IMG/VR virus record: IMGVR_UViG_2623620506_000009
Span: 1-34,002 of that record
Direction: 5' to 3' (one strand)
DNA length: 34,002 nucleotides
DNA from: a virus
Lineage: Duplodnaviria > Heunggongvirae > Uroviricota > Caudoviricetes
Shown here: positions 1-34,002 of the stretch, in pieces
How positions within the stretch are numbered: the first letter of the stretch is position 1
Layout of the letters: the number at the start of each line of letters is the position of its first letter
Notes under the pieces: model-generated
Seen by the model: only the letters and a program-made list of their open reading frames with translations
Told to the model about the DNA's origin: nothing
Database searches by the model: none
Program-made: the position numbers and the translations under genes

Positions 1-726
1 TCACTTCGGGTATGGCTGAACCCTGAACAGCTTGGTGTTTAGGCGCTTTTTTGCGCGCTTATTCAGGAATCTGATGTAGCGATACTGATTAAATTTGTGT
101 ACCACGGCCCGCTCCTTATTAGCCCGTAAATACACACCTCGTTGCCCTCCGCGCTTAATCGCGTTCATCGCTATCTCGTGATACCACTCGCCGTCCAGTT
201 CGTAGAACGTGCTTTCGTGGCTGCCTATAAAATCAAAATTCGACGCCTGATATACCACGCCAGCACGTCCGCAGCGTTCATCTGCAAAGGACTGAACCCA
301 CTCCACTGACGGGTACAGTAACCTGATGGTTTTCAGCGCGTAGCTGATGGCCCGTGATTCAGAATTGCGGGGCATGTCGTCGTGTAACCACATGCGGTTC
401 AGTTCCATATAGCTCCGGTTATCCGTTTCCAGCACAACACGACGCCCTGAGTTGGGGTTAAGGGCATATCCCCACTGAAGAACGCCAACCAGGTCACGTC
501 CGCTGAATACGCCCAGATGCAGGTAGGAGTTATTCACAAAACGGCGGGAATAGTGTTTTGTCTGAATGATTGTGCGGGCCAGCCAGCAGGATATGGTTTC
601 AACGCGCAGCTCCTTTGAACCATAGCCAACAATCCGGCCTTCATACTCAATAACGCAGGGTTTTGTCAGAATGCGTGATTTCTTCTCTTTTCCCACAATA
701 CAGCTCCGTGGGATGCTCTTTGGCAT
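1..726 (-). CDS. mom: DNA modification protein Mom (adenine modification, anti-restriction)
   Basis: ATG at 726 (track ORF starts 4 codons upstream at 738); translation [30 protein letters not shown]... matches recalled Mu Mom along its length; stop TGA at 3..1; preceded by overlapping com. Confidence 0.9.
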
Positions 727-832
727 TCGATATGACAATGTAACGTTTACAGCGAGGGCATTTAATTTCTATATGCTTAAAACCTCCTTTAAACAGTAAT
801 TTATTGCAGTTTTTACAGCGAACAGAGTCCAT
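647..832 (-). CDS. com: Com, zinc-finger translational activator of mom
   Basis: ATG at 832 gives 61 aa [15 protein letters not shown]...IKCPRCKR...THSD: CxxC...CxxC zinc finger very similar to recalled Mu Com; its 3' end overlaps the mom start by about 80 nt as in Mu. Confidence 0.85.
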
Positions 833-859
833 GATTCCCCCTGTGTAATAACCAAACAT

Positions 860-955: not shown

Positions 956-1522
956 TTAATCACCGACAGTTAACGCTCTCACCTCGTCCAATATGGACAG
1001 CCGGGAAAGCTGCTCCTTCATTTCACGCTGGCGCTGATAAATCTCGTCATTGCGATCGACCTGTGCCTGTGCCATTGCTGCTGCCAGTTCTTCCAGTTCC
1101 GGCATCGACAGTTTCACCTGTTGATTATCAGCGTCACCCCACGTCATCTCGTTCCGTGCCGTATCGGATTTCGCCGCCATTACTACCGGATAAAGGCGAG
1201 CCAGTGAGCCGGGGCCAGCGTTCCAGGTACGACCGTTCCATTCGAACGTAAATGGCTGCGCTTCCTGTTCTGCGCGCCATGTCTCTATTTCCCGTTTTTT
1301 GGCATCCTTCGCCGCGGCGATAAGTTCAGGCGTAATGGTGAACGGGGCGATTTCGCCCCATTTGCCACTTTGCAGCTCCTGCCAGATGCGCTGGCCTGTT
1401 TCGGCTGTATCTTCTGCCGTGGCTGTGTAGGGGATAGGGGTATCCATCCCTTCAAACAAAACTTCGCAGTCAATTACGCCGCTCTCGAGATAGCGGGGTT
1501 TTTTGATTTCCTGAATATTCAT
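956..1522 (-). CDS. putative tail fiber assembly/chaperone protein partnered with the Stf-like fiber
   Basis: ATG at 1522 (MNIQEIKKPRY...), 10 nt after the fiber stop with GAGGGA SD overlapping that stop; 188 aa; position and size fit a fiber chaperone; family assignment by eye is weak. Confidence 0.55.
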   Translation of the reverse strand: MNIQEIKKPRYLESGVIDCEVLFEGMDTPIPYTATAEDTAETGQRIWQELQSGKWGEIAPFTITPELIAAAKDAKKREIETWRAEQEAQPFTFEWNGRTWNAGPGSLARLYPVVMAAKSDTARNEMTWGDADNQQVKLSMPELEELAAAMAQAQVDRNDEIYQRQREMKEQLSRLSILDEVRALTVGD

Positions 1523-1532
1523 TTGCAGTCCC

Positions 1533-3824
1533 TCATGCAGCTCTGACAAACAGACCGACCAGTGCGCTGTCACCACGAACGCTACCCGCTGCTCCGTTTA
1601 GTGCAATGTAAGCGCCTGGTAAACTCCATTGCCGACATCCTCTTGTCGTTATTAAAGGCGTTGCTGTGGCAACATTTTCCCTGTCACTTGGAATTGCAAT
1701 GGACAGTGGCGTCAGAGACGCCCCCGGGTAGGCATAACCGCGTGTCATGCTGATATTGGTGTCTCCGTCAGCGGTCCCCTGGTATGCAGCCAGAATCAGT
1801 CCACCGACGTCCGGGTTTCCAATACTTGTTGGAGCAACGCGTGAAGACAAGACGTCAGCAAAATCGACGCCTGTTAAATTCAGCTTTCCCCACTCAGGAA
1901 GCGGGCTGCCAGAGCATCGGGTATGATAAACCTCTCCGTTAACACCATAAAAAGTGACCACTTTAGTCTTGCTATCAGGACTGGCATTGCTGGCAACTGT
2001 ACCGGGGATTTTGATATCAACTATCCCCGTAAAAACAACACCTTTAATAATTGGGTTATACCTGTTAACACCGCCGTATTGAACCACCGCGTATCGACCT
2101 GGATTGGTGCTTTTTACCCATTCTACAAACTCTGTTGGCCCGTTTTCGGAACTAAACGATTTTTCTGAGCGGAAGATAGCTCCGTATCCGAATGCACCGG
2201 GTATTGCTAGGCGGCCTTCGGTACGGTCGTAAATATCCTCCTGCACATCCTTTTGTGCTGCACTGCCCAGCTGTGGCGTCAGATTCGTCCATGTAACCGG
2301 AGCGTAGATATCATCGCCACGAATAGTCATGAGTATCCGCCCGTCTTTTCCAAAAAACAGAACCAGCTTTGTTGCTGTCTGGCTGGTTTTGTCGCCCCAG
2401 TTGTTATCCAGCCAGATAATTTCTGTTATCCCGGTTGTTTCTTCAGTTTGTGTGGAAAAGGTGTAATAGCGTCCCGGACGTTTGTTATGGGTAGCTCTGG
2501 CTACAGTTGTCATGTCGCTGGCGACAATTGAATTACCTCCGGATTTCGTCATTCCATAACCATATGCACCAGGAAGTGCAACACAACCTTCGGTATCGTC
2601 ATAAAGCCATTGCTGGACATCCCTCGTGGCTGCGCTTTTCAGTTCGAGTTCATTGCGCATGGAATCCGCTGTGGTCTGTGCCAGCAGTGAACGGGCTTTT
2701 TCCGACAGAGGAGACAGTGAAACATTCCCGTCCTGATTAAAGCACAGAAGATTATCCGCCCGTTCTTCCAGATTGCTGATTGTCGTTAATACGTCACTGA
2801 GTGGTTGTTTACCCGCCAGCGCGTTAGTGACAGTTGTCGCAAAGTTCGGGTCATTACCCAGCGCCGCTGCCAGCTCGTTCAGCGTGTCCAGGGCTTCCGG
2901 CGACGAGTCAACCAGTGCGGCGAGCAGTTTGCGGACAAATGCCGCGTTCGCGGTTTCCAGACCGACTGCATCGTCCGGTGGGGTTGGTGTGGTTGGCGTG
3001 CCGGTGAACGCCGGGCTGTCCAGTGGCGCTTTTGTTTTCGTCTCGTCCATGACGGTTTTGACAGCCTTTGGTGTGGCTGCCAGTTCTTCGCTGTCGTTGT
3101 CTGTATCACTACAGAGTTGCACCAGGCCTTTTTCTGTCGTGGAAGCATTGCTTCCCTTCAGGTCATCAACTATCCGTTGCGCCTCGTCCTTGTGCTCTTT
3201 CGCGTTCTGCTCGCTTTTGGCAGCCGCTTCGGCGCTGGCTTTTGCCTCGCCGGTCAGCGTTGCGGCATCAGCAAGTTTATCGACCGCTTTCTGGACTATC
3301 TTATCGGCATCTTTGACCGCCTGTTCTGCCCGGGCGGCATTCTGGTTTGTTTCAGAGGCCAGCTTTTCAGCTTTCTGCACATTACTCGCAATTTCTTCTG
3401 CATCCTGCTGTATTTCCCCGGCGAGCGTTTCTGTATCCTGACGGGCCTGTTCAGCAGCGGTGGCATGCTCTCCTGCTTTTTCTGCGCTTTGCTGCGCCTG
3501 TTGCGCCAGCTCTTCGAATTTCTTCAGGGCTTCCGGGCGCAGGTCAATATCGGTTGCGCCCAGAAAATCATTCAGCGAACCGTCCGCTGAATCTTCATAA
3601 ACGCGGATGACACCGATTTCTGAAAGGCGCTGTGTGCTTTGTGTCAGGCGAACGCTGTACACACCCGGCAGAACAGGGAAGTCATATTCCCCGTTCTGTG
3701 TGGTGACATGGCTGAAAACACTTTTCAGAATCCCTGCACGGTTGTGCAGGGAGGTCAGTGTAATGGTTGCGCCGCCCAGCGGTTCTCCCGTGGGCGTTTT
3801 AATCACACCTTTAAGCTGCGGCAT
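1533..3824 (-). CDS. side tail fiber protein, lambda Stf-like (763 aa)
   Basis: N-terminus MPQLKGVIKTPTGEPLGG...VYEDSADGSLNDFL parallels lambda Stf N-terminus; Ala/Glu-rich coiled coil; conserved block ELAATPKAVKTVMDETKTKAPLDSPAFTGTPTTP and SPEALDTLNELAAALGNDPNFATTVTNALAGKQP shared with lambda Stf and P2 H; distinct C-terminal region with three [LI]PGA[YF] repeats. Confidence 0.85.
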   Translation of the reverse strand: MPQLKGVIKTPTGEPLGGATITLTSLHNRAGILKSVFSHVTTQNGEYDFPVLPGVYSVRLTQSTQRLSEIGVIRVYEDSADGSLNDFLGATDIDLRPEALKKFEELAQQAQQSAEKAGEHATAAEQARQDTETLAGEIQQDAEEIASNVQKAEKLASETNQNAARAEQAVKDADKIVQKAVDKLADAATLTGEAKASAEAAAKSEQNAKEHKDEAQRIVDDLKGSNASTTEKGLVQLCSDTDNDSEELAATPKAVKTVMDETKTKAPLDSPAFTGTPTTPTPPDDAVGLETANAAFVRKLLAALVDSSPEALDTLNELAAALGNDPNFATTVTNALAGKQPLSDVLTTISNLEERADNLLCFNQDGNVSLSPLSEKARSLLAQTTADSMRNELELKSAATRDVQQWLYDDTEGCVALPGAYGYGMTKSGGNSIVASDMTTVARATHNKRPGRYYTFSTQTEETTGITEIIWLDNNWGDKTSQTATKLVLFFGKDGRILMTIRGDDIYAPVTWTNLTPQLGSAAQKDVQEDIYDRTEGRLAIPGAFGYGAIFRSEKSFSSENGPTEFVEWVKSTNPGRYAVVQYGGVNRYNPIIKGVVFTGIVDIKIPGTVASNASPDSKTKVVTFYGVNGEVYHTRCSGSPLPEWGKLNLTGVDFADVLSSRVAPTSIGNPDVGGLILAAYQGTADGDTNISMTRGYAYPGASLTPLSIAIPSDRENVATATPLITTRGCRQWSLPGAYIALNGAAGSVRGDSALVGLFVRAA

Positions 3825-11971: not shown

Positions 11972-12167
11972 GCTGTTTCTCCAGTTGCTTTATCAGGCGG
12001 AACAGCTGCCGCAGGGGCAGCTGTTCCAGGTACTGAATGCTGAATCTCTGGGACAGGTTAACCAGCAGGTTCATCAGTGCCGCCGCCAGCGGCATCAGTT
12101 CGCCCCCGCGTTGCCACCTCCTCAAGCATGTCATCCAGCGCAGCAGCTTTGGTGCTGATAAGTTCAA
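11958..12167 (-). other. ORF overlapping the 3' end of the tail chaperone gene in the +1 frame and bridging to the tape measure start (candidate frameshift extension)
   Basis: 69-codon ORF with no ATG or SD of its own; overlaps the chaperone gene by about 110 nt and ends 13 nt past the tape measure ATG; G-run CGGGGGC lies in the overlap. Confidence 0.3.
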
Positions 12168-16364: not shown

Positions 16365-16414
16365 CTGCCTTTTAAAAGGCAGTTAAAAGGGCATTCACAG
16401 CGCCTTTTAACTGC
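16365..16414 (-). terminator. tandem hairpins just downstream of major head gene (attenuator/weak terminator or mRNA-stabilising structure)
   Basis: Perfect palindrome CTGCCTTTTAAAAGGCAG (16365-16382) and longer stem GCAGTTAAAAGGGC/GCCTTTTAACTGC (16379-16414) in the 78-nt gap after the major head stop; only a short U-run follows on the transcript. Confidence 0.3.
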
Positions 16415-26556: not shown

Positions 26557-27104
26557 ACAGCAATTCTCCCGCTGTTTCGTGCGCGGGCATACGCACTGGT
26601 CAGTGCATCATAGCCGCGCAGTTCCCGCCCGGATGGGCTTACAGGTAAAGGCACACCATGTCGGGCAAAGGCTTCACGGATGCAGCGCATGTGCCACTGT
26701 TTGAGCGTTTCGAGCACAACCTGCAACGATTCCCCGTGACACCATGCCAGCGTGGAAACACCCTGACCGCCATTACGTCTGGCCGTCAGGCGTTCAACGT
26801 ATTTGTCCAGCGCGGCGTCGCTGATATCGGATACGAAACCATCAAGAAACATCTGCTGCCAGATTTTATAAATCTTCTCGCGCGGTGTGACATGCCCCTT
26901 AAAGCGACGGCGGGGATGTTTATTCTGCTTTTTAAAACCGCGCTCTTTCATGGCATCGAGCACTTGTTCCAGTTGTGCAACGGACAGCTCGCGGCAACTG
27001 GTTTTGCCCGTGCACTGCACCAGAAAGGCGCGGTAAGTGTCATCGTCGAGGTGCAACTCCCGGCGGGCAACATGAATTAATTTAATCAGGGATGTGCGAC
27101 TCAT
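26553..27104 (-). CDS. gemA: GemA-like early protein (Mu gp16)
   Basis: ATG 27104 with AAGGAG SD (track ORF extends upstream); 183 aa MSRTSLIKLIHVARRELHLDDDTYRAFLVQ...; same length as Mu GemA; position before mor. Confidence 0.8.
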   Translation of the reverse strand: MSRTSLIKLIHVARRELHLDDDTYRAFLVQCTGKTSCRELSVAQLEQVLDAMKERGFKKQNKHPRRRFKGHVTPREKIYKIWQQMFLDGFVSDISDAALDKYVERLTARRNGGQGVSTLAWCHGESLQVVLETLKQWHMRCIREAFARHGVPLPVSPSGRELRGYDALTSAYARARNSGRIAV

Positions 27105-27471
27105 TTTGCCCCATCTCCTTAATGCAGTGTTTTTCGACCCATGCCACACGAGCAGAATTCAGGTGGCATCTGTCATGTAGGCATTCATCATGGTAGTGCA
27201 CGTTATCTACATTAAATGGCAGGGATTCATCCAGCCCACTCGCGACAAAATCCGCATGTAATTGTTCTAGCGCAGCCTCGCTGTCTGCTCCGATTGATTC
27301 AAAATAGTCATAAACATTGGCGCATAATCCGACTCCCCGAATAAACCCTTCCCCTTCCGTTTCTTGCGCTCCGTTTTTTAACCACTGGTTATAGGCGACA
27401 TAAAAATCATAAAGATGTTTTCTGGTGCTGGCGGATGCGGATTTAATTTCATTTTTCTCTGCGTTATTCAT
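27082..27471 (-). CDS. hypothetical early protein (129 aa), Cys/His-rich C-terminus
   Basis: ATG 27471 with GAGG SD; C-terminal HYHDECLHDRCHLNSARVAWVEKHC suggests metal binding; no family recognised. Confidence 0.55.
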   Translation of the reverse strand: MNNAEKNEIKSASASTRKHLYDFYVAYNQWLKNGAQETEGEGFIRGVGLCANVYDYFESIGADSEAALEQLHADFVASGLDESLPFNVDNVHYHDECLHDRCHLNSARVAWVEKHCIKEMGQNESHIPD

Positions 27472-27646
27472 TTCTTAATACCTCTTCGCAATAAAAGATT
27501 TCATTGGGATAATGTTTTTGTATGCGCTCCATCACCTGCATACATGCCTGCTCGGTGGGCCAGATTTTTTCCGTTACAGGGATGGCATCACAGGCATCAT
27601 TCCCGCAGGTGCCAACCAGCAGGACAAAGCCAATTGACTTAATCAT
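27464..27646 (-). CDS. small Cys-rich protein with N-terminal signal-like hydrophobic segment (60 aa)
   Basis: ATG 27646 (track ORF extends to 27742 with non-protein-like extension); MIKSIGFVLLVGTC... resembles a signal peptide/imperfect lipobox; 4 further Cys. Confidence 0.4.
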   Translation of the reverse strand: MIKSIGFVLLVGTCGNDACDAIPVTEKIWPTEQACMQVMERIQKHYPNEIFYCEEVLRNE

Positions 27647-28181
27647 GTTCACTGACTTCCTGTGTTGCGGCCGGAGCTGGTGAATAATCAAGAATGAGAT
27701 AGCGCATGACGTGGTCGGTGATATTCCAGCCACTGGAACCACAAATAAAGCGCCCCATCCGGATATCGATATACGCCATCACAAAACGGGGCATTCCCTG
27801 TTTGCACATCTCGTCATCCACTTCAGCAACGATGTAAACCGACTCGCAGGTCAGTACGCCTGTCGCAAATTCTTTTGCCAGTGCCGGAATGGCATTGCCT
27901 TCCAGCCAGGGCAAAGAGCGGCGGAACGCGCACCATTGAGCATCATCAACATCGGGGTGTTCCGTTGTTGCGTTTCGTCTTACTGGCGGCGTCGGACGAG
28001 GGCGCGGAACGTCATAAAATCCGTTGCATTCAGTGAGAACTCCGGCATCAACCGCATCACGCAGGAAATACACCATTGAGGAAGGTGGCATCTTCATTTT
28101 TTCAGCCAGAACGCCACAGGTCAGACGCCCGTAAGCCCGTAGTAATGTGCTGACACCGCTCAGAATTTTTGCATCAATCAT
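27639..28181 (-). CDS. hypothetical early protein (180 aa), possible N-terminal winged-helix domain
   Basis: ATG 28181; 97-nt gap after gam; N-terminal LRAYGRLTCGVLAEKMKMPPSSMVYFLRDAVDAGVL resembles a wHTH; no family recognised. Confidence 0.55.
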   Translation of the reverse strand: MIDAKILSGVSTLLRAYGRLTCGVLAEKMKMPPSSMVYFLRDAVDAGVLTECNGFYDVPRPRPTPPVRRNATTEHPDVDDAQWCAFRRSLPWLEGNAIPALAKEFATGVLTCESVYIVAEVDDEMCKQGMPRFVMAYIDIRMGRFICGSSGWNITDHVMRYLILDYSPAPAATQEVSEHD

Positions 28182-28278
28182 TTTTATTTCTCAGATATCA
28201 GATTCAGGCGCGAGCAATCCCCTGACGCATCGCGCCATAATTAAAAGAAAGTGAATTAATTAAATATGCGTGGTGGTA

Positions 28279-28803
28279 TTAAATACCGGCTTCCTGTTCA
28301 AACGGAATAATAGAAAAATCTTCAATACCTGATTTGACTGTAATTCCGGCAACACCTGCGACCGCTTTCGGTTCCAGTAAAATCGCCTCCTTGTTGATTT
28401 CCTGTTTCGTGCGAATAAAGCGTTGCAGGCCAAGACGCTCCAGCGTTTCCATCACCGCATCCATGCCGCGAATACTTACCGATGGTGGGCGCTGACGCCA
28501 TGACACATCACCGGTTACCAGGTTTGCCGTCTTCACCTTGCCGCCGTTCGTCAGTTCGTCACGGTTCGCTTCACACCATCCCTGAACGCCTTTTGAAAGG
28601 GTTTCGATACTGGTTTTAAGGGGCGCAATCTGTGAGGCGTATTTCTCAGTAATTTCAGCGATAGCGTCATTCATTTCCGTTTCAAGTCGTGCCGCTTCGC
28701 GTTGCAGGTCACCAATCCGGCGAATATCACACACCACGGCATCGCGGGATTGAGGAACATAAGCTGCTGCGGCACTCTTGATTCGTTTTGCTGGTTTAGC
28801 CAT
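28279..28803 (-). CDS. gam: host-nuclease inhibitor protein Gam (Ku-like DNA end-binding protein)
   Basis: 174 aa MAKPAKRIKSAAAAYVPQ...GVQGWCEANRDELTNGGKVKTANLVTGDVSWR...SGIEDFSIIPFEQEAGI; near-identical to recalled Mu Gam; AGGAG SD. Confidence 0.92.
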   Translation of the reverse strand: MAKPAKRIKSAAAAYVPQSRDAVVCDIRRIGDLQREAARLETEMNDAIAEITEKYASQIAPLKTSIETLSKGVQGWCEANRDELTNGGKVKTANLVTGDVSWRQRPPSVSIRGMDAVMETLERLGLQRFIRTKQEINKEAILLEPKAVAGVAGITVKSGIEDFSIIPFEQEAGI

Positions 28804-28823
28804 ATAAATAAAGCTCCTGTTAA

Positions 28824-29123
28824 TTAATATTCGCTGTATACAATGCTGGATACAGCACGATTGCTTAATTCCATCTTTTGGGCAATGACATGAATAGCCA
28901 GCCCTTCTTTATAAAGTTCACGACACAAATATTTGTCGTGCTCACTGACCCGGTAAACACACAACGATATTCCGTGCCTTCTGGCATGTGCCTGTAGAGC
29001 GGTTGGGGCAACGTTCAGTTTTTTCGCCATTTCTTCGACGGTCATTTTTCCGACACTGGCTTCGATAAATTCCCGGTCTTCGCGTGACCAGCGTTTACGT
29101 TTACACATCATTCCGGTCACCAC
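28824..29123 (-). CDS. hypothetical small DNA-binding protein (HTH-like)
   Basis: GTG 29123 directly after upstream stop, or ATG 29111; MTVEEMAKKLNVAPTALQAHARRHGIS looks like a helix-turn-helix; start ambiguous. Confidence 0.5.
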   Translation of the reverse strand: MVTGMMCKRKRWSREDREFIEASVGKMTVEEMAKKLNVAPTALQAHARRHGISLCVYRVSEHDKYLCRELYKEGLAIHVIAQKMELSNRAVSSIVYSEY

Positions 29124-29543
29124 TCAGTACAACAGGGGGTCGCGCAGTGATGCCGGAATATGCCGCAGCGATAACTGAACCGCTTTCAGGGCAAGGGAAG
29201 AATACGTTCCCTGCGCCCAGCCTTTCGCCATTCGCCGGTAATCGCGCCAGATATTCTGCCACTGCTCCCGTGCGTCCGGGTCTGACGCGCTGATGTATTC
29301 GCGGTCCATGACGTATTCCCATAAATCCTCGTTAAACGCACCGCCAAACGTGATGGCATTAGAGATGTTTTCGCCACAATAACGCGCACAAATGCTGTAA
29401 TGGTCAAATGTAATCAGATAAGTAGTTTCACCATGCTCATAAACTTTGCGGGTGAAAATAAACTCGCGTAATTCTCCTGGATTGTTATTACGCATTTTAA
29501 TTCGAATTAATGCCTGAATTTCGTTTCTGATTTTGGCGTTCAT
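29124..29543 (-). CDS. hypothetical early protein (139 aa)
   Basis: ATG 29543 with AAGGA SD; no family recognised. Confidence 0.55.
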   Translation of the reverse strand: MNAKIRNEIQALIRIKMRNNNPGELREFIFTRKVYEHGETTYLITFDHYSICARYCGENISNAITFGGAFNEDLWEYVMDREYISASDPDAREQWQNIWRDYRRMAKGWAQGTYSSLALKAVQLSLRHIPASLRDPLLY

Positions 29544-29557
29544 TATCAGCGTTCCTT

Positions 29558-29821
29558 TCAGTGACGTGTTCCTTCAACTGTCGTTTTTGTGACACTGCCA
29601 CCCGTGATGACGCCGTCATTTTTCAGAATTTCAATGGCCTCATGGGTTGACTCGCAAACAATATCCCGACTTTTTTCCAGAACCAGTAACGCTACCATGC
29701 CAGCGAGTGTACATTCATCGCCGTCCAGCTCTGCACTGTGTTCTACGTTAATACTGGTACGTAAACGCTGCCCTTTAACTTCAGATGTCGCATTTTTGAT
29801 TTCGATAATGACTTTTGCCAT
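29558..29821 (-). CDS. hypothetical early protein (87 aa)
   Basis: ATG 29821 with GAGGA SD (track ORF extends to 29875); no family recognised. Confidence 0.5.
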   Translation of the reverse strand: MAKVIIEIKNATSEVKGQRLRTSINVEHSAELDGDECTLAGMVALLVLEKSRDIVCESTHEAIEILKNDGVITGGSVTKTTVEGTRH

Positions 29822-29853
29822 TTTGTTATTCCTCACAAATAAATAAGCCGTTA

Positions 29854-30081
29854 TTAACGCCAGATAATCTGACAACCATTAAGACGGGCCGTCCATACTG
29901 AACGGGCAACCCCTGATTTATGCTCCATAATTCTGATGGCGTTCCTGACCAGCTCCGGTGGCGGGCAGGTAATTTCAAGCACCGGGCGGGCTACGCCCAG
30001 CCAGGATTCGTTGACGTGGCTGCCGCGCTCCTGTAACCAGCTCTTTACTTCCGTCGCCATTTTGATATTCCGTGACATCAT
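29854..30081 (-). CDS. hypothetical early protein (75 aa) at the position of Mu kil
   Basis: ATG 30081 with AGGAGA SD, 14 nt after the B stop; position equivalent to Mu kil but homology not verifiable by eye. Confidence 0.5.
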
Positions 30082-30094
30082 GATTTCGCTCTCC

Positions 30095-31033
30095 TTACGT
30101 GCGCAGCAGGGTTGAAATATCAACGTCCAGGTCTAATTCACGGAAAGCCTGACGCAGATAATCTTCATTAACACGTTCACCTTTGCCGTGGGCAGTCATG
30201 GCCGCAAGGCGCAGCGAGTGGTTCAGGATGCGAAGCGCACCTGGTTTTTGTGCAATCTGCTGTAATAATTCCCGCTCGTTTTCGCCGGTAATTTGCCAGG
30301 CATCCGCAATGGCTTTTACATCGTCAATTTTGGTTTTATTAATTGCCGTCCGCTTTGCAATACGGGAAAACAGGCGGGCAAATTCAACCGTTCTGTTACC
30401 ACCGGTCATGTTTGAATAAACACGGTGATTCCCCATCAGAACAAGGCCAATACGGGCAGACTCCTGTAACAGGCGGAGTTCTTCCAGAACCTCAGCGCCA
30501 AGATGATCAGCTTCGTCGATAATGACCAGCCCCTGCGTACCTTCAAGGCGGCGTCGCAAAGCGCGGGAGAGCGGCCCTTTGCGGCGCGGTGCGTCATTCA
30601 TTCCCAGCTCATAAGCCAGTTCAGTGAGACATTCCAGAACACTGGCGCAGGATGGTGTAATGGTGATCATCCAGACATTGTTATTGGTGCGACGAAATTC
30701 GCGGGCCGCTTCAGTTTTCCCCACACCTGGATTACCGCAGATAACAGAAATACTTTCAGTCAGGCTGGCAAAACGCATACTCGTCCAGATTTGACGTGCT
30801 GTTCTGGTTTCCACAAAACGCGGGGGTTCTGGCAGCTCTGCGGCGCGGTGATAGTTCTCCAGCCAGCGTTCCAGTGTCTGCGCGACACGGTCATTGTCGC
30901 CGTTGTACTTGTTATTCACGAATGCGCTTAACGTTCCTGCGGCCACGCCGGACTCGCGGGCAATTTGTGCATAAGTTGTTTTTTCACTTTCTACAAGCGT
31001 GCGCAGTCCTGTGCGAATATCGGAAATATTCAT
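30095..31033 (-). CDS. B: transposition ATPase / target DNA activator B (MuB)
   Basis: 312 aa; [15 protein letters not shown]..., Walker A GNPGVGKT, Walker [11 protein letters not shown]; near-identical to recalled Mu B; GAGG SD. Confidence 0.93.
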
Positions 31034-31071
31034 CTGAATAACCTCGTAATTAAATTTTGTTTAAACGTTAA

Positions 31072-33060
31072 TTAAATGGCTTTTTTACGTCTGTTCTGTT
31101 CCAGAATATCCAGCGAATGATTCAGATATTCATCACGATCAGTTTCATATTCATCATCGGGTTCCTGGTATTTCACCTGCACCGTGTTACCGGAAGGCCG
31201 GAAAATACCAACAACCCTTGATTCTGGCGCTGCTGGTTCGGCTATCTGCGGCAGCAGTTCAGCAACTTCCAGCGCGTCCATTTGCTTCTGCGCCTTAATG
31301 GCTGCTTTAGTTGCAGATTTCAGTTGTTTCTGGCGGCGGCGATATTCACGACCTGCCGCAGCATCATTAAATGCAACAGGGGCCAGACATTCCGCTTCAC
31401 AGATAAACCGACCGTCCAGGGTGTAGCAATAAACCGTGCTGTGTAGCTGCTGTGGATCAAACCTGACCACAACTTTTTTCACTCCGGCATTCATTAATGC
31501 CATGTTGTAATAAACGTTTTTCGCGCCTTTAAGGGAGCCGCCAACTTTAAGCGTAAACTCGCCTTTGCGTGAAACGTTCACCGCCTCAGCAGGCAGTAAC
31601 AGCATCCGTTTTTGTTCTTCGGTTGGCTTACGCACAATCGTTCTGGCGTATTCACGCTCGAAAACATCATCAAACGAGAGTTTGCCCCCGCACATTTCTG
31701 TTTCACGTCCTGTTCTGGCATTGAACATCGCCACACCTTCGGCAAGGGTTTTCAGAAACAGCTCTGCATCAACAGCACGGTCGCCATAGTTATCAGGTTT
31801 TGCCTGCGGATTTGGCCCCGTATATGCACCAGCCAGTGCCGGATGCTTATCAACGTATTCCTCAAGCCCACCAACACCGAAAGCACGTTCAACAGGTTTT
31901 GCCTGGCCCCAGCCTTTACCGGCAACAACGCTTGTCCAGTGCATTTTCGCGCCCATCAGTAAAAACAGTCCCTTTGGATCGTCCTCTTTCACCTTAAAGC
32001 GGTAGCGATTGGGCGCGCCCCCCGTCAGCCATTTATTCGCTGCACCACGGGTGTTATCAATGGTGATGTGAAAATCCTCCGGGATGCCGTAGCGTGTCAC
32101 CACATCCATGAACGAGAGGCGAATTGAATCGATGTTCTCGCTTACATCGCAGCGCCAGCCCAGAATTTTTCGGGTTTTCACATCCTGCCAGAACCATGTT
32201 TTCGGGCGGATCACATCGCCGTTAAACCAGCGTACAAAGACGTTATGCAGATAACCGTCGCCGTTGATCCACTGCATGGCGTCCAGGTGTTCCACAGTTC
32301 GCTGCTGTGCCGGTATCAGATGCATCAGTGCATGTTCACCTTCACGGCAGGCAACAACCATTGCCTCATCCAGTTGCTGAATCCGGCGAAAGGCCGTGGC
32401 ACGGGAGGGAATACTCCAGCCATGCTCGCGGGCTGCCAGCTCCAGACGCTCATAACATTTGCGGAAGGCGGGTTTTTCTGGTCGCAGATAATCTGCAATC
32501 AGAAACTGCCAGGCATCCTCGTCAAATTCACTTTTGTGAACATTGCGACGAGATGCACCACGTCCATCAACAAGTGCTGCCGCCCAGTCAGGCTTCGCAA
32601 ACTTCTGTACCTGGTAATACTTGTCCCGCAAAGTGGATGCGCTGACCTGGTAATGCCCTGCAACGGTCGCAAAAGCCGTTTTCGTTGAAATCCCCTGGTT
32701 CAGCATTTCGTCTGCAGCCTGAACCGCAGGCAACCATTTTTCAGCAAGTCTGCGCTGGGAATTGCTGGCGTTATCCCATTTGCTCCACAGTGCCTCACGA
32801 TCATAATCATGGGCTTCCAGCGTGGGGCGGGCGATTTCAAAACGGCCCTGGCTTGTTTCAATACCTCCTTGTTGCAATAAAATTTCAGCACGTAATGCAA
32901 CAGGAAATGATTTGATATTGAATTCAAATGATACACCTTTAGTACCTGTAACTTGCCTAAACACCCAGCCTTCTCTTTGTGCCTTACGTGTAATGTTAGT
33001 TGCTTGCTTTGGCAAACCAGCAAAACCAAGCAATTCTTTCGCTGTATACCACTCTTTCAT
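31072..33060 (-). CDS. A: DDE transposase A (MuA), D108-type N-terminus
   Basis: 662 aa; from about residue 70 ([26 protein letters not shown]...) matches recalled Mu A through the catalytic core and C-terminus (...[19 protein letters not shown]); N-terminal 70 aa differ from Mu as in D108. Confidence 0.95.
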
Positions 33061-33067
33061 AGCGCAC

Positions 33068-33289
33068 CTAGTATCGAGATGGCCAGATATCCTGCGGTGT
33101 CATTCCCAATGCATCTGCAATGATTTTTTCCGCTTTTGGGTATCTCTTATCTAAAGCATTTTTTAATGTTGAAGACGAAAGATGATTCGATCTTCCCAAT
33201 TCGGCCAGTGACATATTGCGTTTTCGTAACTCAGCAACGATGTCAGCCCGATGCCAGTCTTGGCGGTTAGCTCTTTTATTCATATGCAT
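33068..33289 (-). CDS. ner: Ner, early transcriptional repressor
   Basis: ATG at 33289 with AAGGA SD (track start 33331 is TTG); 73 aa ...[28 protein letters not shown]...IWPSRY; conserved DWHRAD and IWPSRY motifs as in Mu Ner. Confidence 0.85.
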
Positions 33290-33477
33290 TTCATGTAATC
33301 CTTTCAGATTCACCCGTGAGCTACTCTGCAAAGTAGCTCACGGCATATCGAGCAATGTACAGTGAAATCTTTTTGGAATCAATGATGATTTGAAAAGATT
33401 TTACAGCATCTTGATTAATTATTTGAAACTTAAAGTAATTTTTTTCAACTTTAATGAAATCATTGGGATTTTAAACA
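33290..33477. promoter_or_regulatory. divergent c / ner control region (early promoter and operators)
   Basis: AT-rich 188-bp gap between divergent repressor and ner genes; 11-bp perfect inverted repeat CGTGAGCTACT-N6-AGTAGCTCACG (33315-33342); second dyad AAATCTTTT/AAAAGATTT (33365-33373 / 33393-33401). Confidence 0.55.
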
Positions 33478-34002
33478 ATGTCTTTTGAAATCAAAGAATG
33501 GTTTAATGCGAAAGAGCTGGAGGGGATGCCTGGTGTGCCAAAGTTGGCGACTAACATTACCAGAAAGGCTGTGGCAGAAAATTGGGTAAAACGTCAACGT
33601 CATGGTGGAAAAGGTGTGGCTTATGAATATCACATCAACAGCTTACCAGAAGAAACCCAAAGGGCTATTAAGGGAGCATCATTTTCTTATACCCCTCCAG
33701 TACATGTACCAAGCCATCATACAGTTGATGAGCGGCTAGTTTATGCAATGAGTTTCTTAACGCCTGATGAGCAAGCTGCGGCTATTGAGATCATTCGTGT
33801 GGCAGGAATTAAAGGTCTTATGCCGACAATTGTTAGCAAAGATAAAGCGTTAGAAGCATTGGGGGTTACTGTGGAACAACAAAGAACCCTACAGACACTT
33901 CAAGCATTACCGCCGGAAAAAGCGAGAGAGATTTTATCTCAGTATGAAAATAAGGAACACAACCTCCCGGCAAGAGAAGACGATGTAAAAAAAGCTGTAT
34001 AA
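33478..34002 (+). CDS. c: repressor c (Repc-like), D108-type
   Basis: 174 aa; N-terminal [30 protein letters not shown] resembles the transposase N-terminal DNA-binding domain ([30 protein letters not shown]) as in Mu; only plus-strand gene; stop at window end. Confidence 0.8.
   Translation: MSFEIKEWFNAKELEGMPGVPKLATNITRKAVAENWVKRQRHGGKGVAYEYHINSLPEETQRAIKGASFSYTPPVHVPSHHTVDERLVYAMSFLTPDEQAAAIEIIRVAGIKGLMPTIVSKDKALEALGVTVEQQRTLQTLQALPPEKAREILSQYENKEHNLPAREDDVKKAV

Follow-up and report, generated by a model that had tools for sequence, protein, structure and literature searches.

In phage Mu, immunity specificity is a property of the c repressor and its operators and not of the Ner site. For the related coliphage D108, Tolias and DuBow in 1985 and Kukolj and colleagues in 1989 are said to have footprinted Ner on two 11-bp inverted repeats, CCGTGAGCTAC, located 8 bp apart. 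The Mu genome (AF083977) has a 30-bp dyad between ner and the start of the early promoter, which the dyad directly follows, and its c repressor and transposase carry paralogous winged-helix N-terminal domains. Short repeated motifs, which make up the operators O1-O3 and the transposition enhancer (IAS), are clustered in Mu between c and the early promoter Pe. A 61-bp Ner operator of D108 is on record as characterised, according to the title of a paper by Benevides et al. (1994) that is cited in PMC10434027. Full-text searches of papers other than the primary D108 reports found none that quotes the operator sequence. Another related phage, SfMu, has been reported to be UV-inducible (PMC4406740), and the paper describing it (Jakhetia & Verma 2015, PMC4406740) gives the same protein identities as those listed below and leaves operators unmentioned.

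Organization of the c-ner region and its relatives

A Mu-like prophage lies inverted in the DNA analysed here, a stretch of 34,002 nt that we refer to as the window, and the left end of the prophage forms the right end of the window. The genes for the c repressor and Ner are divergent (Table 1), and the 188-nt intergenic region between them is the site of two inverted repeats, dyad 1 next to ner and dyad 2 further toward c. Positions 33000-34002 of the window are 99.6% identical to the Shigella flexneri phage SfMu (KP010268) and 85.5% identical to D108 (GQ357916); a blastn search with the same segment returned no match to Mu. Judged by these identities, the nearest relative of the c-ner region is SfMu, not D108. 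It is very likely that the interval represents the c/ner control region of a transposable prophage of the Mu-like (D108/SfMu) type, in which dyad 1 would act as the Ner operator and the block around dyad 2 as a promoter-proximal operator of c. This assignment draws on observed sequence identity, the pattern of conservation, motif enrichment and protein homologies. The preliminary description had proposed a switch region here, and the divergent arrangement of c and ner, together with a promoter-like element that is conserved in D108 and lies between the two dyads, bears this out.

Table 1. Genes and predicted regulatory features at the right end of the window
Feature	Coordinates	Strand	Details
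B	30095-31033	minus	
A (transposase)	31072-33060	minus	
N-terminal (enhancer-binding type) domain of A	32866-33060	minus	paralogue of c N-terminus
ner	33068-33289	minus	73 aa; Cro-like, represses early transcription and that of the repressor
Predicted Ner operator (dyad 1)	33314-33343	.	12-bp perfect arms CCGTGAGCTACT (33314-33325) and AGTAGCTCACGG (33332-33343), 6-bp spacer
Predicted early promoter Pe	33354-33382	minus	-35 TTGATT 33382-33377, 17-nt spacer, -10 TACATT 33359-33354
Dyad 2, candidate promoter-proximal c-repressor operator (O2) and enhancer element	33365-33401	.	four AAATC-type motifs: AAATC 33365-33369 and GAATC 33376-33380 (plus); GATTT 33387-33391 and 33397-33401 (AAATC on minus)
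IHF-like site (weak, speculative)	33404-33416	minus	AATCAAGATGCTG, one mismatch to WATCAANNNNTTR, A/T-rich tract before it
Candidate c-proximal operator (O1)	33455-33492	.	AAATC 33457-33461 (plus), GATTT 33467-33471, AAATC 33488-33492
c repressor	33478-34002	plus	174 aa, Mu-type winged-helix N-terminal domain

The similarity to SfMu is nearly complete in the control region, where both dyads are identical and the c proteins are two residues apart, but identity of 97-100% is limited to the segment that runs from about position 31380, within A, to position 34002; it falls to about 70-97% across B and the semi-essential region. Comparison of positions 26600-34002 with positions 1-26600 indicates that the prophage is a mosaic. 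In a megablast comparison of the late region with Mu, D108 and SfMu, no match was found except for mom/com (1-822, 89%), and the tail-fibre region (1016-3344) resembles the side tail fibre genes of lambdoid or Rac-type prophages (88.8% to phage Rac-SA53), not Mu S/U.

The Ner protein is identical to Ner of SfMu (73/73 residues, 100%), matches D108 Ner in 72 of 73 residues and is 52% identical to Mu Ner. The sole difference from D108, A7T, lies outside the helix-turn-helix as placed here. Ner belongs to the Pfam family HTH_35 (E=1e-28), and its nearest solved structures are those of EnrR (PDB 7f9h) and Mu Ner (PDB 1neq). The chromosomal Ner homologues EnrR (E=1e-22) and Nlp/SfsB belong to the same HTH_35 fold family. 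In the EnrR crystal, two molecules are packed on the short palindrome CTATAG. Unlike the Ner of this prophage, EnrR and Nlp/SfsB are regulators of the host or of islands that act on AT-rich or other targets, outside any phage switch. The ner start codon is the ATG at 33289, which follows an AAGGA Shine-Dalgarno sequence by 9-10 nt. A longer frame starting from TTG at 33331 (33068-33331, 87 aa), present in the open reading frame list, was rejected because this codon is inside the operator and the annotated homologues use the ATG.

The c repressor is 99% identical to c of SfMu, 89% to c of D108 and 29% to Mu c. It matches the Pfam family HTH_Tnp_Mu_1 (E=4e-44), with MuA domain I-alpha (PDB 1tns) and the Mu repressor MuR (PDB 1g4d) as the nearest solved structures. 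The same Pfam family covers residues 8-141 of the transposase A, and the N-termini of c and A encoded in the window are about 50% identical to each other; repressor and transposase have paralogous N-terminal domains, as in Mu. Over its first 120 residues, A shares 95% identity with D108 A and 63% with Mu A, with the differences from Mu A concentrated in residues 1-60. Since, in addition, residues 1-65 of c show only three differences from D108, both proteins have D108-type N-termini, as had been claimed.

The predicted Ner operator

The inverted repeat first noticed upstream of ner, with 11-bp arms CGTGAGCTACT and AGTAGCTCACG at 33315-33325 and 33332-33342, is located exactly as described and gains one more base pair per arm, giving perfect arms of 12 bp; it can alternatively be read as 11-bp arms of the D108 type separated by 8 bp. 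The repeat is situated 24 nt upstream of the start codon of ner. When the 188-nt intergenic region was simulated 1000 times with a first-order Markov model, perfect arms of at least 12 bp appeared in 0.1% and arms of at least 11 bp in 0.6% of cases, so dyad 1 is clearly far from the chance expectation (P~0.001). Just two other 12-bp perfect inverted repeats with spacers of up to 30 nt are found in the 34-kb window, and a search of the window for GAGCTAC-N8-GTAGCTC, allowing up to three mismatches, found dyad 1 as the sole match.

At the same position D108 has CCGTGAGCTAC-GCTATAAA-GTAGCTCACGG. The two arms, their 8-bp separation and the distance to the ner ATG are all equal to those in the window, but the spacers differ (TCTGCAAA in the window, GCTATAAA in D108, both in the orientation of the window), and it is the spacer of the window that lengthens the perfect symmetry to 12 bp and shortens the spacer to 6 bp. 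In a comparison of the two phages, all 22 arm positions agree and three of the eight spacer positions differ (Fisher one-sided P=0.014), while nucleotide divergence nearby amounts to 8% in the ner ORF and 49% in the middle of the intergenic region.

The same pattern is seen in other viral sequences. Identical arms with variable spacers are present in D108, SfMu and seven IMG/VR contigs, and a scan of IMG/VR for the arms detected no contigs beyond these D108/SfMu-type ones. Among 80 viral contigs with Ner homologues, every locus of the D108/SfMu type has the dyad, always 24 nt before the ner ATG, with a single arm substitution in three of these loci. Two contigs that encode a 79%-identical Ner keep the core GAGCTAC-N8-GTAGCT and differ in the outer arm positions and the spacer.

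The proposal that dyad 1 is a candidate Ner operator gains from these comparisons, as the arms match the D108 dyad base for base at the same distance from ner and the Ner proteins differ in a single residue. We consider dyad 1 a supported prediction of a D108-type Ner operator, to which Ner would bind. Its arms are those that we take to form the footprinted D108 Ner operator, given their sequence identity with the D108 genome. Operators of this type have already been characterised, and the region around dyad 1 is almost the same as in a phage that has been published.

The comparison with Mu, suggested earlier along with that to D108, gave a different result for the arm sequence. The Mu dyad has an AGCTA-type core in each arm, as does dyad 1, but its arms differ from those in the window (AGCTAGCTAAGT-N6-ACTTAGTTAAAT). 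A Mu-type example upstream of ner among the more distant Ner groups is AACTAAGT-N6-ACTTAGTT. Dyad 1 had been called unusually long for a phage operator, a view that does not hold within this family: the dyads of Mu (12+6+12) and D108 (11+8+11) are similarly long and other Ner groups possess long dyads of their own, which makes a 30-bp dyad the family norm.

Subgroup-specific long perfect dyads were also observed 36-70 nt upstream of ner in the IMG/VR loci L019-L034, L038-L042 and L063-L065. Examples are TGATTAAGT adjoining ACTTAATCA, GAATAACAC-N4-GTGTTATTC and ATAGTTGCAT-T-ATGCAACTAT; in L042 the arms reach 16 bp.

Several further inverted repeats were noted elsewhere in the window. A GATC-rich 11-bp perfect repeat, GACGATCGATA-N6-TATCGATCGTC (906-933), is located just upstream of a com-like ORF (647-859, minus strand) and may correspond to the Dam/OxyR-type control region of the mom operon. 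Perfect 12-bp repeats lie at 16379-16414 (GCAGTTAAAAGG-N12-CCTTTTAACTGC; nested repeats are also present from 16365 onwards) and at 11999-12027 (GGAACAGCTGCC-N5-GGCAGCTGTTCC).

The predicted early promoter

The hexamer pair TTGATT-N17-TACATT is the sole promoter-like pair in the direction of ner that is common to the window and D108. It matches 8 of 12 consensus positions and is unchanged in 10 of 11 aligned loci; the remaining locus, L016, has TTGAAT-N17-TATTAT in the same place. Transcription from this predicted Pe would start near 33348-33346, and the Ner dyad would then span roughly +4 to +35. Dyad 1 is found downstream of the hexamer pair within the divergent c/ner intergenic region. The layout in Mu is the same, as the GenBank record annotates Pe at 991-1028 with the remark 'part of Ner binding region'; the dyad of Mu comes next, at 1029-1058. 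Another pair, TTCAAA-N18-TAAAAT (33427-33398), is a higher-scoring sigma-70 match but was rejected as Pe because it is not conserved in D108 and because it would leave the Ner site about 50 nt past the start, unlike in Mu. A consensus scan of the region for a promoter in the direction of c gave no convincing candidate.

Candidate operators of the c repressor

Dyad 2 is present as originally described, with AAATCTTTT (33365-33373) and AAAAGATTT (33393-33401) separated by 19 nt. Taken singly it is within chance and not significant: a 9-bp perfect arm appeared in 12% of simulations (P~0.12) of the 134-nt AT-rich part of the region (25% G+C), and the window has about 17 distinct inverted repeats of at least 9 bp. 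The support for a function of this site therefore comes from motif enrichment and from a layout that is conserved in D108. Four AAATC-type motifs, of which dyad 2 forms the outer pair, make up a block here (Table 1), two direct and two inverted with spacings of 11 and 10 bp, and the whole block straddles the predicted -35 element of Pe. AAATC occurs six times in 33344-33500, compared to 1.8 copies expected (P~0.006), the densest spot of the window; in D108 there are eight copies compared to 1.5 expected, a number reached in none of 2000 simulations. A k-mer enrichment test of the Mu operator region recovered CTTTTC/TCAGTA, which we take to be the Mu repressor consensus, and so serves as a positive control for the AAATC test.

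We think it rather unlikely, although by no means negligible, that the palindrome is a chance by-product of AT-richness, so that the -35 element and single repressor or enhancer sites would be functional and no protein would read the symmetry. The frequency of 9-bp arms in the simulated AT-rich segment fits this explanation, and the outer arms of D108 match imperfectly (GAATCATTT versus AAATCCTTT, 7/9) and its inner arms better; the outer and inner symmetry centres of the block are 0.5 bp apart. On the other hand, the four-motif layout, with its two direct and two inverted copies and its spacing of 10 and 11 bp, is kept in both the SfMu-type and the D108-type alleles at 17% divergence in the segment, and some D108-type loci have a perfect 11-bp inner dyad, CTTTCAAATCA-N4-TGATTTGAAAG, at the same centre. 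These two observations argue that approximate two-fold symmetry has been selected.

We read the dyad 2 block as the promoter-proximal operator to which the c repressor would bind, and probably as an element of the transposition enhancer as well. The earlier description placed dyad 2 in the AT-rich stretch expected to contain the repressor operators and the early promoter; a block of four motifs describes the site better than the simple dyad proposed then. A second cluster, at 33457-33492, crosses the start codon of c, with its last AAATC inside codons 4-5. All three of its motifs keep their positions in loci of the D108 and SfMu types, which is consistent with a further binding site for the c repressor, and we list it as a candidate operator. 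The arrangement resembles the motif clusters between c and Pe in Mu, but the repeated motif is (G)AAATC(A) here and of the CTTTTC/TCAGTA type in Mu.

The middle segment between the two AAATC clusters contains a sequence with one mismatch to the IHF consensus, both in the window (Table 1) and in D108 (AATCATGCTGTTA); no exact match to the consensus was found in the c/ner region. Its designation as an IHF site is weak and speculative.

A profile scan of genome contigs with the c alignment detected only two loci, both in Haemophilus parainfluenzae, whose intergenic repeats are of an unrelated GGAACT type and which are for that reason useless for an analysis of operator covariation. One of them (L005, 1097-2196) encodes a Mu-like c homologue of 234 aa that is 50% identical over the N-terminal domain and is likewise divergent from a ner homologue. 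The longer C-terminal part of this protein looks like a candidate autocleavage domain of the LexA/S24 type.

Other possible roles of the two dyads

Transcription from the predicted Pe start would run through dyad 1, and early mRNA would open with a hairpin. Dyad 1 might accordingly act mainly as RNA, forming a 12-bp stem with a 6-nt loop at the 5' end of the early transcript that could stabilise the message or tune ner translation, but we regard this as improbable. The RNA from 33348 to 33275 (minus strand) folds to -27.4 kcal/mol, with z = -5.35 relative to shuffled sequences and dyad 1 as the main stem; every DNA palindrome, however, yields such a hairpin. One arm position in L016 has changed symmetrically, from G-C to A-T, as would be expected of a stem, yet three other arm positions in this locus are unpaired and the core GAGCTAC/GTAGCT is invariant. 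A core sequence that is kept where pairing is lost is the pattern of protein half-sites and not of a stem. Moreover, loci L009, L010 and L013 have an uncompensated change in an arm of dyad 1, and the Rfam search returned sub-threshold noise with no family match. Neither strand has a T-run after dyad 1, and no terminator-like site is predicted in 33000-33700, for which reasons a role as intrinsic terminator was also rejected. An RNA-hairpin role would in any case be compatible with Ner binding. Least credible of all is that dyad 2 is a second Ner site or an IHF site and not a c-repressor operator, since, although it adjoins the Ner operator and its inner part AATCAATGATGATT is similar to the WATCAA half of the IHF consensus, it has nothing in common with the GAGCTAC core, and 33365-33401 contains no match to the IHF consensus with one mismatch or fewer, such sites lying further toward c.

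A model of the switch

The preferred reading, with dyad 1 as the Ner operator and the dyad 2 block as a c operator, suggests the following scheme, in which every contact between protein and DNA is a prediction, as are the start of Pe and repression at the c promoter. Firing of Pe would lead to accumulation of Ner, which would bind both 11-12-bp arms of dyad 1, located directly past the predicted start. By analogy with Mu and D108, bound Ner would lower early (ner-A-B) transcription as well as leftward transcription toward c, and the phage would become committed to lytic growth. The block straddling the Pe -35 element would serve as the promoter-proximal operator for the c repressor, with the second motif cluster at the c start and the IHF-like site between the clusters. 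Because the N-terminal domain of A is paralogous to c, the AAATC clusters may also form the transposition enhancer, in which the A domain would use the c-repressor sites, as in Mu.

Immunity type and distribution of alleles

The Mu (sensu stricto) immunity type is not matched by this prophage, as seen from the low identity of c (29%) and Ner (52%) and from the different enriched motifs. The preliminary description had included the Ner site in the immunity determinant, which conflicts with established Mu biology, where specificity is assigned to c and its operators. It is these parts that distinguish the prophage from D108. The c-proximal operator segment is 51-78% identical to that of D108, with 51% in 33402-33450, and the part of c that encodes residues 66-174 is 82% identical at the nucleotide level; the positions of the AAATC motifs are mostly conserved. 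Relative to D108, most of the operator segment next to c is replaced.

Forty-one of 5426 complete E. coli genomes contain at least 80% of positions 14000-34002 of the window (20 kb), the best at 97.6%. Within this E. coli prophage lineage, the c-ner region is found as an SfMu-type allele in five genomes (99.3%) and as a D108-type allele in about 40 (about 85%). None of the genomes has two copies.

Implications

The significance of these results is mainly one of annotation. The Ner operator, a probable early promoter and likely repressor and enhancer sites can now be placed in an SfMu-type prophage that lacks a published operator map. The operator arms are much more tightly constrained than the surrounding DNA, and the dyads of the different Ner subgroups are a ready data set toward a Ner recognition code. 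The comparison of alleles also raises the question of whether SfMu-type and D108-type phages are cross-immune, as Ner and its operator are common to both and c and the c-proximal operator DNA differ: the arms of the Ner operator are the same, the operator/IHF middle segment is 51% identical and c has 19 substitutions. We consider it doubtful that the SfMu-type allele represents a third immunity specificity among enterobacterial Mu-like phages. If it does, a single Ner switch would be common to phages that differ in repressor immunity, and the two alleles would be interchangeable cassettes circulating within one prophage lineage of E. coli.
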